In this document: positions 27,001-33,000 of the stretch, one piece after another
Numbering within the stretch: position 1 is the stretch's first letter
Layout of the letters: each line of letters starts with the position of its first letter
Assembly: GCA_965223415.1 (NCBI GenBank)
Contig: OZ245002.1
Coordinates: 4,256,001-4,320,000, forward strand
Direction: 5' to 3'
Length of the DNA stretch: 64,000 nt
Source: Myxococcota bacterium
Lineage (GTDB): Bacteria > Myxococcota_A > UBA9160 > UBA6930
Position numbers: made by a program

Positions 27001-30000
27001 GGGAGGAGTGGGGCCAGGTCTTCAGCGAGGACGCGGAGCTCGATACGACCCAGGAGGCGCCGAACGCCCGGGCTTCCGGCCGCGACGCCATCGTCGAGAT
27101 GGTGAGCACGGCGGTCGGCGCCGCGGTGACGGTCCACCACGGCCACATGCCGGAGATCGAGATCACCGGGCCGACCACGGCGAGCGGCACCTGGGCGATG
27201 GAGGACTACCTCGAGTTTCCGGGCGATCCGCCGCCGCTGGTGGTGCACGGCCGGGGCCACTACTTCGAGGAGTACGAGAAAGGCGGCGACGGCGCCTGGC
27301 GGATCAAGTCGCTCACCCTGCGTCGGCTCTGGCTCCAGCACAGCGGGAAGCGGACCTTCCCGCCTCAAGGCCTGCCCTGAGCAGCCGGGCGGAGGGACGC
27401 TTCCTTCGCGAGGGCCTGGGCGCCGGCGACGCGGAACGCATCGGCGCCGGCGAGTGGTCGACGGCCTATGCCTTCGAGCGGGACGGCCGGCGCCTCGTCG
27501 CGCGCTTCGGACACCACCCCGAGGACTTCCGCAAGGACGCCCTGGCGGCGGAGCGCTTCTCCGGGCGTCTGCCCGTCCCGCGGGTGCTCGAAGTGGGGCC
27601 CGCGCACGGGGGCCTCTCGTACGCGGTGTCGGCCTGGGCGCCGGGAGAGCCCCTCGACGGGCTGTCCGAGCCGGGCCTGCGCGCAGCGCTGCCGAGCCTG
27701 CTCGACGCGATGGACGCGATTCGCGCGCTGCCGCCCCCGGGGCCGGAGGGCTTCGGCATGTGGCGCAGCGACGGCCGCACGCCGCACCGGAGCTGGCGGG
27801 CCGCGCTGCTCGCCCTCGTGGAGGAGGAGGAGCTTCCGCGCGCTGCCGGCTGGCGCGCCTTTCTGCGGGCGGAGCCCGAGTGGGCCGCTCGCTTCGACGC
27901 GTCCGCCGCGGCTCTCGCCGAGCTGGCCGGCGCGTGCCCGCCCGGGGTGCGCCACGTGGTCCACGCGGATCTCACCGCCGGCAACGTGCTCGTGGCCGAC
28001 GGCCGCGTGACGGCCGTTCTCGACTGGGGCAACTCGCTCGTGGGCGACTTCCTCTACGACGTCGCCTGGCTCGTCTTCCGGTCCCCCTGGCACCCGGGGC
28101 TCGACGCGGACCTCGTGCTGGCCGAGACCCGCCGGCGCTGCGCCGCCAGCGGCGACGACCTCTCCCACTTCGAGGAGCGCCTGCGCGCGTGCGGGCTCCA
28201 CATCGGCCTCGACTCGCTGGCCTACAACGCCTTCCGCCACGACGCCGTGAATCTGCGCGGGACGCTCGGGCGGATGCGGGAGCTCTTCTCCCTCTAGCGC
28301 GGCGCCGTTCCCGAGAGCTAGGCGAGCTCCAGCAGGTTCCGGGCCAGGTCGACGCCGTCCTTCGCCTGGGCGCCCCAGCCGTCCGCGCCTTGGTCGTCGG
28401 CCCACTGCTGGGTCGTCACGCCTCCGCCGACGATCACCGGGTACTTGTCCCGGACCTTCATCTCCTGGAGCAGGTCGAGCAGCTCCGCGAACTTCTCGAG
28501 GGCCGGGGCGAAGACCACCGACACCGCGATCATGTCCGCGCCGCTCTTCTCCGCCGTCTCGTAGAAATCCCAGGGCGTGTTCTTCTCGCCCATGTCGATC
28601 ACGTCGAAGCCGCCGATCGAGAGCAGGGTTCCCACCAGGTTCTTGCCGATGTTGTGCTGGCTGAGGAGCGTGCCCAGCACGATCTTCCGATTGTTCTTCG
28701 GCGTCTCGCCCCGGGGAAGCGCCGCCTCGATCAACGGGATGCAGGTCTTGGCGGTCACGCCCGCGCGCACCAGGTCGAGCACGATGGCCTTGCGGGCGGC
28801 GAAGCGATCGCCCACGTCGCTCAGGCCCTGCATCACGCCTTCTTCGAGCAGCTGCATGGGGTCGAGGCCAGCGGCCAGGAGCTCGCGGGTCATCTCCGCG
28901 GCCGGCTCCGGCTGGGTCTCGCTCACCTTCCGTCGCAGGTCTCCGATCGTCGCCATTCATCCTCTCCTAGGCGTCGGTCCAGGTGGGGTAGTCCAGTCCG
29001 AGCTCCCGGAAGATCCGGGTGAACTTCCGGTACTGCAGGACGAGCTCCTCGCGGGGGCGGAGGGTCGTCAGGTCGTAGAGCTTGTCGAGCCCGACCGGGG
29101 GCGGAGTGGGCTCGCGCTCCGCCGCATTGATCTTTCGGATGATCTCCACGCCCTCTTGCGGAGTGAGGGTCGCGGCGGCCCGGGCGATCTCTCCCGCCCA
29201 GCGGCACTCGAGGCCCGTCGAGCCCCCTGCCAGCCACAGAGCCTCCATCCCGGAGATGCAGGCATTGATGCAGTGGGTGGCCGTGTCGTACCAGGCGTCG
29301 TCCGAGAAGGCGGCGCCGGGCTGGCCCGTACTGCCGAAGGAAACCCAGGGGAGCTTCAGGTTCCGCTCCGCCGCGAGCGCCGCCGCCGAGTTGCACCAGG
29401 TGATGTCGGCCCCGACGTAGCTGCCGTGGATCGACATCGACATGGCCTGGGTGAGTGCGCCGCCCGAGTAGCAGAGCATGCCCAGGGTGTGGGCGATGAT
29501 CTCGATGGCCGCCTGCTCCGGCCCGGTCACGTAGCCGTACATCGCCGGGGAGCTGCTCATCCATGGCTCGATGCCGTGTTGGTCGCCGAAGAAGGCCAGG
29601 TTGAAGCGGTCGTAGTTGATCCGCATGTCCTGGAGGGTCTGCACCGGCAGCGTGCAGTTCCGAGCGTTGTACATGCCGGGACCGAAGGTGCTCATCATCG
29701 CGAGCGGCGTCGTGGCGCTCATCGGGATGCCGAAGAAGAGGCCCGGCTTGCCTGCCCAGGCCGCCGCCTCGTTCATCGCGCGGGCCTCGGTCTGGCACAC
29801 GACGGTCTGGGCCGGCGTGTCGAGGATGTTCTTCAGCTCGCCCACGCCGAGCAACGGGATCGGGATCACGCCGTCGCAGGTCGGCTCCTGCATCGACGTC
29901 ATGGCGTAGAGCTTGTAGCGGTCGACGTTCTTGGTGAGCGCGCCCGCCGGGAACCAGGTGAAGGGATGCCGGGCGTCGCCCGGCGCCCGGGGCGAGAGGG

Positions 30001-33000
30001 TGATGGCCTCGCGCCCGGATCCCAGGGTGATCTCGTGGCGGGCGGCGGCGATGGCCTCGAGGACCTCCTCCTCGGTGAACTTGACGATCCGCCGGGTGTC
30101 CTTGCAGTAGAGGCCCACCTCGAGCAGCAGGTCGAGGCCCGCGCGGAAGATCGCGTCCGCCAGGTCGGGGTCGATCATCACCGGGTCTTCGCCGTTCCAT
30201 TCGATCCGGTGCCGGGCCTGCACCTCGGCCATGACGGTGGGGAAGAGCTCGGTCTCGAACTTCTCTTCGATCATGATCGGCCCGGTGCCCGAGCGCTCGA
30301 CCGCCTGCCAGAGGAGCTTGCCCATGGAGGTCTCCTTCAGCCCTGCAGGTAGCACTCGCCCTCGCGCATGCAGCGCATGAGGGCGGCGCATTCCTGGCCG
30401 ACGTAGCGGATGTGCTGGGGCAGCAGCCACGGCATCACGTCCACGATGTACCAGGAGAGATCCTCGGGGTCGCTGAAGGCGTCCTCCCACTGGATGTCGC
30501 TGGCATCGTGGTTGAGCAGCATCGCCCGGGCCTTGCCGCCGTCGTTGCCGAACAGGAAGACGCCGGAGGGATCGACGTGGAGGGGCAGGGGGCGCTTGAA
30601 CCAGTCTCCCAGCACACGCCAGGAGCGCGCGAAGTCCCGGGCCGGGAGCACGACCCGTTGGAGGAGGAAGGTGGCCGTACCCGCTTCGACCCCGAGACGC
30701 CGGGCCTCCTCCCGGTGTCGGCGCACGAGGGCCGTCGCTTCGAGGGGCCAGTCCGTGTAGACGTCGCAGCGCTGCAGCACGTAGGAGGCGAAGAGCTTGT
30801 CCTCGACGATCTCGAAGTCTGCCGACGCGAGGTTCGCGTCCCGCGCACCGGGGAGGAAGCACCGTTCGAAATCGTCGCGGGTGAAGTCCAGGAAGGCAGG
30901 GAACTCGTCCCTCGCCTCCTTCTCGCCATTCTCGAGGACCGGTGTCTCGACGGTCACCAGGGCGTTCAGCGCCACGGCGGCGCGCTCGCCGGGGGCGCTC
31001 TCCCGCTCGCTGCCGATCCGGAGCGCGAGGTTCAGGAGCTGGAGCCAGCCGTCGGCGACGCTGCTGGTGAAGATCGGGAAGCTCGTCTTGCGCGAGAGGA
31101 AGACCTTCCGCTCGGGGATTTCGGGCGCGGTCAGGCGGAGGCCCGTGCGCTCTCCGGACCGGAAGGGCAGGTCGCGGATCGACGCGGCCAGGTCGCCTTG
31201 AGGCTTCTCGCGCAGGTCCGATATCTGGACGTCCGACCGCAGGGCATCGACGGGGGTGGCGCCGAGCTCCGGCGAGAGCCGCCCACGAGGGCCCGCCAGC
31301 CGGCCGTCCTCGTCGAGGCCCTGCTTCCAGAGGACGACCAGGGCGTCGCCGGTGGCCTTCCGGTCGTCGCCCGCGAGCACCAGGTGGCGGACGTCCGGGT
31401 GCGCTGCCAGCTCTCGCAGCAGCTGCTCCAGCTCGGAGCGGGAGCCGAGCGGCGCCGAGAACGCGATGCGCTCTCCTTCGAGATGGGTGCCACAGACGAC
31501 GACGTCACGAGTGGGCATGACGATCCTCCTGGCCTCTGCGGGTGCAGAAGGCACGGATGAACTGGTCTTCCAGCCGTTCGAGCACGGCTTCGTGGGCCGC
31601 CTCCAGGCCCTGCTCGACCCAGTGGGTCAGCTCCACCTGCTTGAGGGCGAGCATCTTGCGGACCAGCAGGTCCGGGTCGTCCGGGACGTAGAGGCCCTCT
31701 GCGATGCCGCGTTCGAACAGCGCGCGCGGGATCGCGGCGCCCTCGTCCCAGATCGGCGACTCCCCGGCCGCGTTGGCGAGCCTCGACGCCCAGCCGTAGC
31801 CGTCGCGGCTGCACATTCGCAGGAAGTCCGGGCGCTCGAGGAAGTAGCGGGCGCCTTCCCGCAGCACCGCCAGGTGGGCGGGGAGGGTGTCCGCGTGCGC
31901 GTCGTGGGCGGCTCGTATGCAGGCGAGGAATTCGCGCATCCGCACCCGGTGGATCTCGCGGAAGAGCGAGTCCTTTCCGTCGATGACGCCGTAGAGGGTC
32001 CCGAGGGACACGCCGGCCTCGGCCGCGATGTCCCGCATGCGGGAGCCGTCGGCACCCTTGGCGCCGAACACGCGCTCGGCGGCGGCGGCGACCGCCTCGC
32101 GGTAGACCGATGCGCGCTCCTCGCGCATGCGCTGCTGGATCGGTGCGCTGCGGGTCTTCGCGGGGGCTCTCCGGGCCATGAATCCGGATTCTATTACATT
32201 AGAACCAGAATTTCAATCGGCGACGGCGAACACCAGGAAGCTCTGCCGATCCAGGAAGGTGTGGTCGGCGTCGAGGCGGTAGCCCGCCTCGACGAGGGCG
32301 GAGACGATGGCGTCCTTGTCCGTGGCGTGGTTGCCGAGCAGCGACCAGCCGTCCCGGGGCGCGTACTCCACCACGGCGATCCGGGCTCCCGGCCGGAGGT
32401 GCGGCTTCAGGTTCGCGAAGTAGGCCGCCTGGTCCGGCAAGTGGTGGAAGGTGTTGCAGGTGAAGATCCAGTCGACGGGCTCCGGGAGCTTCGCGTCGTC
32501 CGGCGCGGCGAGGACTGCGCTCACGTTGGCAACGCCGTCCTCCTCGGCCTTGCCGGCGATGTAATCCGTCATGTCCGCGTCGATGTCCACCGCGTAGACG
32601 CGCCCCTCCGGCACCGCCGCGGCGAGGCGGAAGGTGAAGTAGCCGCCGCCCGCACCGAGATCCGCGATCAGGGCGTCCTCGGCGAAGCCGAGGCTCGCGA
32701 CCACCTGGGCCGGCTGCTGCCACTGGTCCCGGTCGCCCCCGGCGTACATGCGGCGCTTGAGCCAGCCGCAGCCGAGGCTTCCCGCGACCAGCGCGGTGAG
32801 CAGGGCGAGAGCGATCGCCCGTCGGGTCATGTCCGTTCTCCTAGGCCGGGCGCAGGGTGTTCAGCTCGCGCGCGTTGTCGCGCAGGATCCTCTGGAGCGA
32901 GGCGGCATCGAAGCCCTCCAGCTCCTCCAGGTAGTCGAGAGGCTGGGGCATGCCCTCGATGTGGGGCCAGTCCGAGCCGAAGATCACGCGCTCGGGGCCC

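Follow-up and report, generated by a model that had tools for sequence, protein, structure and literature searches.

A DUF4346 protein of thymidylate synthase descent linked to a pyrrolysine-free MtmB homologue in Myxococcota, a possible third component of cobalamin-dependent methyl transfer

Several homologues of MtmB act without pyrrolysine. Their published substrates are tetramethylammonium/choline for MtqB (PMC13044021), estrogens for EmtA (10.1101/714501; PMC7448270) and androgens for AbeA (PMC11912376). MtqB, from the tetramethylammonium/choline methyltransferase MtqBC of Methanococcoides methylutens, was termed by its paper the first non-pyrrolysine MtmB with demonstrated function (PMC13044021). 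Denitratisoma and Steroidobacter methylate estrogens with EmtABCD (10.1101/714501; PMC7448270), for which SAM is the published donor (PMC7448270). AbeABC of Phosphitispora sp. TUW77 is a 1-dehydrotestosterone:THF methyltransferase system in which an MtmB-family MT1 and a corrinoid protein are joined by a separate folate-side MT2 (PMC11912376).

We analyzed a 64,000-nucleotide stretch of a Myxococcota genome (the window), in which a comparable cassette occupies positions 28318-32179 of the minus strand. Genes for a TetR regulator, a protein that we call g23, an MtmB homologue and a corrinoid protein are all co-directional, in agreement with the four-gene operon of the first-pass annotation. The features are as follows.

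32188..32216, minus strand: promoter-like site, TTGAAA-17 nt-TAGAAT (consensus match only)
31505..32179, minus strand: TetR-family regulator of 224 aa, encoded first in the cassette (Pfam TetR_N, E 2.6e-10)
30337..31518, minus strand: g23 (g04023), 393 aa, three domains, ATG at 31518
31144..31518, minus strand: g23 residues 1-125, MtrA-fold N-domain (VIA-align, phmmer)
30595..31089, minus strand: g23 residues ~144-308, thymidylate synthase (TS) fold without the catalytic Cys (VIA-align, Foldseek, residue table)
30337..30594, minus strand: g23 residues 309-393 and stop, DUF4346 (PF14251; Pfam 38.2 bits vs cut-off 29.6)
30332..30336, minus strand: AGGAG ribosome-binding site (sequence reading)
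28967..30325, minus strand: non-pyrrolysine MtmB homologue, 452 aa, ATG start (Pfam MtmB, 1l2q alignments)
28318..28956, minus strand: corrinoid protein, 212 aa, cap and Rossmann B12-binding domain (Pfam, NCBIfam, orthologue alignment)

One promoter-like site precedes the whole four-gene cassette, in a small AT-rich island immediately 5' of the TetR start; it is the single such site in 27900-34900, where shuffles give an expectation of 0.2. The g23 and TetR genes overlap by 14 nt at the TetR stop, and a GTG at 31554 could also serve as the g23 start. The AGGAG lies immediately past the g23 stop, six bases 5' of the MtmB ATG. We predict, tentatively, that the cassette is a self-regulated, three-component system for cobalamin-dependent methyl transfer.

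The MtmB homologue matches Pfam MtmB over profile positions 4-450 of 450 (E 4.3e-44) and aligns with PDB 1l2q (E 6e-33 over residues 11-444 as a single sequence, E 8e-44 as a 20-orthologue profile). Either alignment places the pyrrolysine X of M. barkeri MtmB opposite Gly199 (codon 29729-29731, minus strand), and this Gly is invariant in the 20 orthologues. Read with table 11, the frame is free of internal stops and therefore of in-frame TAG, which upholds the earlier call of a pyrrolysine-free protein. The gene previously annotated as cobalamin-binding (g04021) does carry Pfam B12-binding_2 and B12-binding, with below-cut-off NCBIfam matches to MtgC and pyl_corrinoid. In its product, SQHNIG (His101) replaces DxHxxG and is invariant in a 19-orthologue alignment.

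Both AbeABC (PMC11912376) and the present system are three-gene cobalamin cassettes with an MT1 lacking pyrrolysine (~50 kDa), a 23-kDa corrinoid protein and a carrier-side third gene, the last putative in our case. However, AbeC has 265 aa and its gene start resembles a pterin-barrel MT2 by eye (not computed), whereas the third protein here has a TS fold and DUF4346; a rough by-eye reading puts the two MT1 proteins at ~30% identity. The present host is also aerobic, as first annotated and consistent with three heme-copper oxidase genes, and its cassette has its own TetR. EmtABCD (10.1101/714501; PMC7448270) resembles our locus in combining a non-pyrrolysine MtmB homologue with a corrinoid protein and in lacking a pterin-barrel MT2. 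Both systems occur in Gammaproteobacteria including Steroidobacteraceae. Emt-like clusters differ in having a ~100-aa protein and luciferase-like oxidoreductases without a TS-like/DUF4346 gene, and their MtmB homologues are 27-32% identical to that of the window. MtqBC likewise pairs a non-pyrrolysine MtmB homologue with a cognate corrinoid protein but comes from an archaeon, relies on the CoM-dependent MT2 MtqA/MtbA and groups near the Pyl-MtmBs (PMC13044021).

An AlphaFold2 model of g23 built from 22 sequences (pLDDT 78.1, pTM 0.75; DUF4346 part poor) was matched by Foldseek to thymidylate synthases, dCMP hydroxylase and MilA (probability 1.00, E 4e-8 upward). This reproduced the annotated anatomy of an alpha/beta N-domain followed by a TS-like fold, and the homologue search again gave 238 matches (48-73% identity to g23 for the 120 listed). 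Beyond that annotation, we find that the N-domain is a dispensable MtrA fold, that DUF4346 is the most constrained part and that the protein is of genuine TS descent. The N-domain has the Rossmann-like fold of MtrA, the cobamide-binding subunit of methyl-H4MPT:CoM methyltransferase (PMC4915002), and matches 5laa_B with Z 15.0 and rmsd 2.1 over 124 residues (VIA-align) and 9qtq_A with E 2.4e-5 (phmmer). In contrast to MtrA, it lacks His84 and the GAIPF(Y/F)xEN motif, and its Pfam match is sub-threshold (22.2 bits vs cut-off 25). The cobalt-ligand His is missing; in the 9qtq_A alignment, the His of the KGHITGQ stretch is deleted. Since 27 of the 83 loci lack the domain, we regard the TS-like and DUF4346 domains as the core.

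VIA-align matched the TS-like domain to 9iqc_A (Z 14.9), 5jnh_A (Z 12.3) and TS entries (Z 9-11). DUF4346 is the best-conserved part of g23: its mean pairwise identity is 0.84, whereas the other two domains reach 0.56-0.58. It is no less constrained than the corrinoid protein (0.76) and MtmB (0.70). Its structural comparison gave no clear match (best Z 6.4). In NCBIfam, DUF4346 is also C-terminal in DHPS-like (TIGR00284) and MtrA-type (NF002128) models.

The fold and three-domain architecture of g23 are those of methanogen-type ThyA (TIGR03283) in its fused MtrA-TS-DUF4346 form. The wider MtrA-TS-DUF4346 family matches solved TS structures with E 9e-26 and has all TS motifs, and g23 descended from this lineage, a relationship new here. 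Unlike ThyA, the g23 clade has no nucleophile Cys (0/43 members) and shares its loci with genes for MtmB and a corrinoid protein; the window's host makes dTMP with ThyX. Most nucleotide-binding residues are also gone; the positions aligned with H207, Y209, R126 and R127 are variable, the second Arg of the RR pair is Ser, Ala or another residue, and the N177 position is Glu or Gln. The Asp aligned with TS D169, which we take to contact the pterin, is kept in 41 of 43. Dehalococcoidia-like relatives also adjoin MtmB and a corrinoid protein, mostly with the full complement of TS catalytic residues (of 16 informative sequences, 10 have the Cys), and in our tree the Cys-less clade is nested within MtmB-linked sequences, most of which keep the Cys. 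Ten residues are common to both MtmB-linked groups and absent from the wider family (R143, Q160, N163, R179, R309, Y357, D360, W364, Q368 and R371). A TS ancestor with MtrA-like and DUF4346 domains may have become linked to MtmB and the corrinoid protein and would have lost the nucleophile and most nucleotide-binding residues afterwards. Because the catalytic residues are lost, g23 probably has a new job in B12-dependent methyl transfer.

Our genome and metagenome scans yielded 24 and 59 loci, respectively, with this linkage. Across these 83, from several phyla, g23, MtmB and the corrinoid protein are linked even where gene order is rearranged, which argues for one three-part system, as the first-pass annotation had proposed. 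Where enough downstream sequence was present, 43 of 46 loci had the corrinoid protein no more than 2.2 kb from g23, and 40 of 51 had MtmB within 400 nt; in 10 of the remaining 11, MtmB was convergent or upstream. Of the 61 loci in which 800 nt or more precede g23, 38 have a TetR orthologue no further than 400 nt upstream of it. The hosts are Myxococcota, Gammaproteobacteria, Binatia, a Spirochaetaceae MAG and Dehalococcoidia.

The Pterin_bind search of the genome gave only a 386-aa FolP-like frame and MetH, and no pterin-barrel MT2 beyond these, in line with the earlier view of a third component unlike MtrH/MetH-type barrels. Two other carrier genomes (G001 and G004) likewise have one short and one MetH-length Pterin_bind frame.

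The reading that we favor, still tentatively, is that g23 is a putative C1-carrier-side (MT2-like) component that probably uses folate. The MtmB homologue would be a pyrrolysine-free TIM-barrel methyltransferase for a specific small-molecule substrate, exchanging the methyl group with the cobalt of a His-on corrinoid protein. As an obligate third subunit, g23 would bind the corrinoid protein, and its TS-like and DUF4346 core would pass the methyl group between that protein and a carrier, most probably tetrahydrofolate; substrate and direction of flow are putative. It would stand in for the MtrH/MtgA/AbeC-type pterin barrel missing from this genome. We base this on the three-gene linkage, on the conservation of DUF4346 together with the ten shared residues, on the lack of an alternative MT2 in the genome, and on the folate-enzyme fold with its retained Asp and the occurrence of DUF4346 in DHPS-like and MtrA-type models. 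AbeABC is a precedent (PMC11912376). The TS-like fold annotated for g04023 is supported; its annotated role as a folate-binding methyl acceptor is putative, the Cys and most nucleotide-binding residues being lost. Several observations weigh against the carrier-side reading. The TS active site is decaying and not visibly re-tooled, and the window's g23 is short of a ~45-residue segment (bearing YG..R, DQ and RR motifs in relatives) and matches no TS model in Pfam or NCBIfam. Folate genes are rare neighbors (MTHFR in 2 of 83 loci), the Cys-retaining Dehalococcoidia-like relatives fit a nucleotide acceptor better, at least ancestrally, and the best-conserved part, DUF4346, is without known fold or function. 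In the Emt system, SAM serves the second half-reaction and no MT2 is known (PMC7448270).

Decay of the TS active site would also suit a non-catalytic accessory subunit that, as a scaffold, cap or chaperone, holds the corrinoid protein against MtmB, shields the cofactor or loads it, or aids reactivation, while the methyl group passes via MtmB alone or to an enzyme encoded elsewhere. The Emt system offers a parallel, as EmtAB is proposed to catalyze both half-reactions, with EmtC/EmtD regarded as helpers (PMC7448270). A highly conserved DUF4346 surface whose signature residues track MtmB/corrinoid linkage fits an interface, the MtrA-fold domain derives from a cobalamin-binding fold, and we found no RACo/RamA-type activator in the genome, so help with reactivation would be needed. 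However, Pfam and NCBIfam gave no redox-cofactor or ATP-binding motif in g23, its MtrA-like domain is optional and without the cobalt-ligand His, and an MT1-type barrel normally requires a second methyltransferase. Other proteins can evidently reactivate, since the RACo module next to the cassette in two genomes accompanies the neighboring Emt-like cluster. We consider an accessory role rather unlikely. Unlikely, too, and slightly more so, is a catalytic g23 with a partner other than folate, in which the ancestral protein moved a methyl group from the methyl-corrinoid protein to a pyrimidine nucleotide and the Cys-less clade switched to, for example, a phosphorylated or nucleotide-like compound, a thiol or SAM. 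The nesting of this clade among mostly Cys-keeping, MtmB-linked sequences suits such a switch, as do relatives so linked that retain all TS residues; three (L024, L078 and L080) have Asp at the N177 position, which presumably faces the base. The clade has its own invariant R137, R143, R309 and R371 and the new, likewise invariant C377 and C389. SAM is the Emt donor (PMC7448270), and MetK adjoins the cassette in loci L008 and L015. Yet H369 and C377, eight residues apart on one predicted helix of the AlphaFold2 model, appear too widely spaced for a single metal site, and adjacent Emt-like clusters account better for MetK, RACo and MTHFR. ThyX is also present in two of four Dehalococcoidia genomes, and no nucleotide-metabolism genes recur beside the Cys-retaining loci.

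As to the substrate, the methylated amine first suggested is one option, but the published non-pyrrolysine homologues also act on tetramethylammonium/choline, estrogens and androgens (PMC13044021; 10.1101/714501; PMC7448270; PMC11912376). We think it improbable that the cassette is an Emt/Abe-type steroid (de)methylation system in which MtmB works on the steroid A-ring and g23 is loosely connected. The window's genome has a single MtmB match and no Emt-like cluster; where Emt-like copies coexist, the cassette MtmB is a paralogue at just 27-32% identity, and the abeA1 start, translated by eye from the supplement and not computed, is roughly 30% identical (PMC11912376). That EmtA and AbeA are non-pyrrolysine MtmB homologues nevertheless favors it (10.1101/714501; PMC7448270; PMC11912376), as do Steroidobacteraceae among the hosts and an Emt-like cluster that directly adjoins the cassette in L008 and lies 12 kb from it in G004. 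Neighbors differ between loci, with long flanks in only 35 of 83. Those that recur, namely P450 (8 loci), ethylbenzene-dehydrogenase-like Mo enzymes (7), luciferase-like oxidoreductases (6) and acyl-CoA dehydrogenases (4), suit hydrophobic or steroid-type catabolism; thiolases and a ChsH2-type OB-fold protein occur in single or few loci.

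The cassette is made up of four co-directional, tightly packed minus-strand genes, as the first-pass annotation had proposed in describing it as a four-gene operon. The cassette and the features around it are listed here in window coordinates.

37307-38461, strand opposite to the cassette: luciferase-like gene, about 5 kb away
32841-34547, minus strand: Amidohydro_2 protein, upstream of the cassette
32213-32830, minus strand: SAM-dependent methyltransferase, directly upstream of the cassette
32216-32188, minus strand: promoter-like site TTGAAA-17-TAGAAT, in a short AT-rich island just upstream of the TetR gene
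31505-32179, minus strand: TetR regulator
30337-31518 from the ATG (alternative start GTG at 31554), minus strand: g23
28967-30325, minus strand: MtmB homologue
28318-28956, minus strand: corrinoid protein
28654-28656, minus strand: codon of His101 of the corrinoid protein, in its SQHNIG motif

The start of g23 overlaps the TetR stop, 11 nt separate the g23 stop from the MtmB ATG (with an AGGAG site upstream of it), and 10 nt separate the MtmB stop from the start of the corrinoid protein gene. The promoter-like site is the sole one within 27900-34900, where 0.2 sites are expected by chance. Because it sits just upstream of TetR, the SAM-methyltransferase and amidohydrolase genes look like a separate unit; this pair was not conserved beside the cassette in the relatives checked. 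A search for an operator upstream of TetR yielded no inverted repeat at seed 6. On the downstream side, 20 nt lie between the end of a convergent kinase-like gene and the corrinoid protein gene. The flanking regions also hold a sigma-54-dependent response regulator (23990-26497) and a chemotaxis cluster with MCP, CheA, CheW and CheB (39278-45994), and the window is immediately preceded by a heme-copper oxidase gene (G000:C1:4254189-4255382, on the single contig of the host genome).

The MtmB homologue scores 151.5 bits with PF05369 (cut-off 25, E 4.3e-44), in a match that spans positions 4-450 of the 450 in the profile. It aligns with Methanosarcina barkeri MtmB (1l2q) at E 6e-33 as a single sequence and at E 8e-44 with a 20-orthologue profile. 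In both 1l2q alignments the residue opposite the pyrrolysine is Gly199 (in GLFFGIPMS), a glycine that all the orthologues share, and the reading frame contains no internal stop. The protein thus lacks the pyrrolysine, encoded by an in-frame UAG, of MtmB proper and is the pyrrolysine-free homologue previously described. A cognate corrinoid gene adjoins it, and this arrangement is conserved across loci. No NCBIfam model gives the MtmB homologue a name. The corrinoid protein carries the B12-binding_2 cap domain (32.1 bits, cut-off 23) and the B12-binding Rossmann domain (58.5 bits, cut-off 32.1), both above the Pfam cut-offs, which fits its earlier designation as a cobalamin-binding protein. The usual His-on motif of corrinoid proteins is DxHxxG. 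The corresponding SQHNIG, invariant in 19 orthologues, keeps the His and Gly and has Ser in place of Asp. NCBIfam matches to MtgC and pyl_corrinoid were below their cut-offs.

g23 has three parts. Residues 1-125 have the MtrA fold (VIA-align to 5laa_B: Z 15.0, rmsd 2.1, 124 residues); phmmer finds 9qtq_A at E 2.4e-5, and the Pfam MtrA (PF04208) score of 22.2 is under the cut-off of 25. Residues from about 144 to 308 have the thymidylate synthase (TS) fold, with a Foldseek probability of 1.00 and VIA-align Z scores of 9-15 overall (9iqc 14.9, MilA 12.3, TS entries 9-11). The alpha/beta N-domain and TS-like fold reported for this protein were therefore both recovered. Residues 309-393 are DUF4346: PF14251 scores 38.2 bits (cut-off 29.6) and, in the 405-aa frame counted from the GTG, covers residues 328-404. 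A cobalt-ligand His84 and a GAIPF(Y/F)xEN motif are features of MtrA (PMC4915002). Both are absent from g23: His84 is lost with a deletion of two residues, GRLS..PEL stands in the region of the motif, and that loop has no conserved His in the 14 family members aligned. No PF00809 (Pterin_bind) match was found on g23, consistent with the first-pass view of a third component unlike the MtrH/MetH-type pterin barrels, and RACo_C_ter (PF14574) was not found in it. A fusion search, which is weak evidence, found no g23 homologue longer than 688 aa.

The DUF4346 part is poorly modelled in the AlphaFold2 prediction for the window g23. We therefore describe it from the model of L013, a natural short-form homologue of 295 aa, which was folded from a 79-sequence alignment (pLDDT 92.3, pTM 0.88). 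In that model the TS core resembles TS-fold enzymes at Z 12-18, and DUF4346 forms three strands and two helices. A structural search with DUF4346 gave nothing above Z 6.4. The best matches, ribosomal L26/PSRP-3-like chains, were treated as uninformative at Z 6.4 or lower, and an ESM Atlas search with this part returned no usable match. A Zn-thiolate site built from H369, C377 and C389 seems unlikely, given how these residues are spaced along the helix predicted there.

Scans with the g23 alignment yielded 83 loci, 24 from genomes and 59 from metagenomes, and some organisms are probably represented by two loci (L021/L084 and L024/L078 are examples). Record titles place the hosts in Myxococcota, 'Deltaproteobacteria', Halieaceae, Steroidobacteraceae, other Gammaproteobacteria, Binatia, Spirochaetaceae (a single MAG) and Dehalococcoidia. 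Of the 46 loci with 2200 nt or more of downstream sequence, 43 have the corrinoid protein no farther than 2.2 kb from g23. In L008 it is 2.9 kb away, beyond two copies of MtmB, in L088 it is 3.1 kb away, and in L075 none was found in the 3.25 kb downstream of g23. MtmB is within 400 nt in 40/51 loci with at least 1500 nt downstream, and it is convergent or upstream in 10 of the remaining 11. Upstream sequence suffices in 61 loci to look for TetR, which lies at most 400 nt upstream of g23 in 38 of them. The MtrA-like domain is dispensable, because the g23 match begins only at query residue 121-139 in 27/83 loci despite the presence of upstream sequence. Mean pairwise identity within the clade of the window is 0.84 for DUF4346, 0.56 for the N-domain and 0.58 for the TS-like part; in their own orthologue sets, the corrinoid protein averages 0.76 and MtmB 0.70.

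An exhaustive search revealed a wider family of proteins of about 470-530 aa with the same three domains and 20-35% identity to g23. These proteins (P0131-P0189 and P0244) combine an MtrA-like domain, an intact thymidylate synthase and DUF4346, and they score above the cut-offs of the Pfam MtrA, TS and DUF4346 models. Some sources annotate them as thymidylate synthase (a Nanoarchaeia MAG is one case), and one member is fused to dCMP deaminase. The MtrA cobalt-ligand His is present in 0/14 aligned members. The family profile matches solved TS structures at E 9e-26. For TS residues we use the numbering and roles of the E. coli enzyme (C146, R126/R127, R166/S167, N177 facing the base, H207/Y209). 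The nucleophile column has Cys in all 34 distant members and in none of 43 sequences of the window clade, and the window protein has Asn. In this clade the second Arg of the RR pair is also missing, and N177 is replaced by Glu or Gln. The window g23 is without a segment of about 45 residues that includes RR, and its other dUMP-binding positions (R166/S167, N177, H207/Y209) read Q/R, E and V/P. Neither PF00303 (TS) nor the NCBIfam TS models match g23, and PF00303 has no match in the whole host genome.

A third group, mostly Dehalococcoidia-like, is 34-38% identical to g23 and is encoded beside MtmB and a corrinoid protein; its MtmB is 55-60% identical to that of the window. It mostly keeps the full TS residue set: of the 16 informative sequences, 10 have Cys at the nucleophile position and the other 6 have Gly. 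All TS catalytic residues are kept at the Cys-retaining linked loci L022, L024, L070, L071, L078, L085 and L088, and Gly occupies the Cys position in L069, L072, L073 and L086. At the Dehalococcoidia-like loci the TS-DUF4346 gene is usually convergent with the orthologues of MtmB and the corrinoid protein, three of the loci are flanked by recombinase or transposase genes, and ThyX is also present in two of the four genomes checked. Ten residues (R143, Q160, N163, R179, R309, Y357, D360, W364, Q368 and R371) are common to both linked groups and not to the wider family, and five (H337, F348, W356, C377 and C389) are specific to the Cys-less clade.

Phylogenetic analysis (FastTree; 95 sequences, 295 core columns, midpoint-rooted, fragments below 200 residues left out) recovered the Cys-less clade as monophyletic with a support of 0.999. 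It is nested among MtmB-linked sequences at a weakly supported node (0.21), and the linked sequences adjoin a further Cys-retaining group (0.998). Because of this nesting, the linkage with MtmB and the corrinoid protein seems, from the tree, to be older than the loss of the TS residues.

The host genome (one contig, 5.83 Mb, 97.3% complete) encodes one MtmB homologue and one DUF4346 copy. Pterin_bind is confined to a 386-aa FolP-like frame and MetH, the latter full length in a 1554-aa frame. Among five other carriers, the pattern of one short and one MetH-length frame recurs in G001 and G004. G002 shows an additional short frame that matches less well, and there are three matches in G003 and four in G005. 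MetE and a RACo/RamA-type activator (PF14574) were not found in the 97.3% complete host genome. It contains three heme-copper oxidase subunit I genes, and ThyX with no ThyA match. The host ThyX (G000:C1:1941967-1943319) is an open frame of 538 aa that Thy1 matches twice in tandem, and it looks duplicated or fused.

We interpret g23 as most likely the third component of a corrinoid methyl-transfer system, because of its linkage, its conservation and the lack of another second methyltransferase. The best single guess for its function is a putatively folate-side role like that of MT2, the carrier-side methyltransferase, since its fold and the company of DUF4346 are pterin-related. The TS site itself looks degraded rather than rebuilt. 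Two serious rivals to a folate-side g23 are an accessory or docking role and a role with a non-folate partner. A bolder reading is that TS-DUF4346 enzymes accept methyl groups from the corrinoid protein, and the relatives that retain Cys keep it alive. Put specifically, and in a form that we consider improbable, the TS-fold/DUF4346 proteins would be undescribed methyl-corrinoid-dependent methyltransferases. The Cys-retaining relatives would methylate C5 of pyrimidine nucleotides directly from methyl-Co(III), and the Cys-less clade would be a later offshoot in which the acceptor changed and the corrinoid-docking machinery (DUF4346 and the linkage-specific residues) was kept. If true, this would provide a route to thymidylate or 5-methylpyrimidine without folate oxidation, and a dead TS would be the MT2 of a catabolic methyl-transfer cassette.

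To our knowledge, three-component corrinoid systems are known only with a second methyltransferase of the pterin-barrel (MtrH/MetH) or URO-D type. A conserved TS-derived partner would be a new carrier-side solution and would give DUF4346 its first functional context; in the open-access literature we found no paper on DUF4346 (PF14251, IPR025595, PterinBD-DUF4346) or on a TS-like partner of corrinoid systems. A real TS, a TS tied to MtmB and a corrinoid protein, and a dead TS form a series in which enzyme exaptation can be tested, and one may ask whether methyl-cobalamin is used by some TS relatives. The cassette may feed an unrecognised methyl source into C1 metabolism, since its carriers, drawn from several phyla, are aerobic or facultative bacteria of marine and sediment habitats.

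Other MtmB homologues without pyrrolysine provide a point of comparison. MtqB is described as demethylating tetramethylammonium and choline, with a Met and a Cys fully conserved among its homologues and aromatic residues near the ligand (PMC13044021). Work on the emt cluster (10.1101/714501, PMC7448270) reports that EmtA and the corrinoid protein EmtB methylate estrogens at C10 with SAM as donor. It also describes EmtC as without similarity to known proteins, EmtD as an F420/FMN-type oxidoreductase, and a RACE-type activator and SAM-regeneration genes nearby. AbeA and AbeB are reported to demethylate androgens at C19, with the methyl group passed to THF via AbeC, and the same paper remarks on a 'missing MT2' in proteobacterial EmtA/AbeA-like systems (PMC11912376), a question on which g23 bears. 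Such homologues are not limited to amines (10.1101/714501, PMC7448270, PMC11912376, PMC13044021).

Clusters that we call Emt-like, on gene content alone, occur in three genomes of the sampled Steroidobacteraceae-level family (L098 in G051, L099 in G004 and L100 in G157) and at L008:12885-17329. Their gene order is a luciferase-like gene, an ORF of about 100 aa, a corrinoid protein, an MtmB homologue and another luciferase-like gene. The divergent side carries TetR (TetR_C_11), a 2Fe-2S ferredoxin, RACo, an ORF of about 250 aa without a Pfam match, and MetK. The MtmB homologues from G051, G157 and G004 are only 27-32% identical to that of the window and do not qualify as its orthologues. Likewise, the cassette has neither kind of Emt/Abe companion, that is, an emtC/emtD-type small protein with a luciferase-like protein or an abeC pterin-type MT2. 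No DUF4346 gene was found in any Emt-like cluster examined, and the ORF of about 100 aa stands in its stead, so the idea that g23 is an EmtC finds no support. Translated by eye, the first part of abeA1 in the PMC11912376 supplement suggests about 30% identity to the window MtmB, an estimate rather than a computed value. Accession look-ups gave no connection between the AbeA and window MtmB clades.

Both kinds of MtmB coexist in G004, where the Emt-like cluster lies 12 kb from the cassette, and in L008, where the two are directly adjacent. RACo, MetK and MTHFR neighbours of the cassette are therefore best assigned to Emt-like clusters. The cassette was also considered as a MetH substitute, as SAHase, MTHFR and MetK flank it in L008; this was rejected because the host genome has a full MetH and the flanking genes accompany the neighbouring Emt-like clusters. 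The proximity of cassette and clusters is nevertheless a hint that the two function in related settings, which for the cassette may be of steroid type.

Long flanks were available in only 35 of the 83 loci, and flanking genes vary beyond the cassette. Recurrent families are P450 (8 loci), ethylbenzene-dehydrogenase-like Mo enzymes (7), OYE/Pyr_redox reductases and luciferase-like oxidoreductases (6 each), short-chain dehydrogenases and TonB-dependent receptors (5 each), RACo (3), and MTHFR and MetK (2 each). The OYE/Pyr_redox neighbour was rejected as a trimethylamine dehydrogenase, its closest solved relatives being 2-naphthoyl-CoA reductase and 2,4-dienoyl-CoA reductase. At one locus from a Steroidobacteraceae MAG (L010:3257-5272) the MtmB match is split between two frames at residue 363/364 and the frame continues into the corrinoid protein, reflecting either a frameshift, a fusion or an error of assembly.
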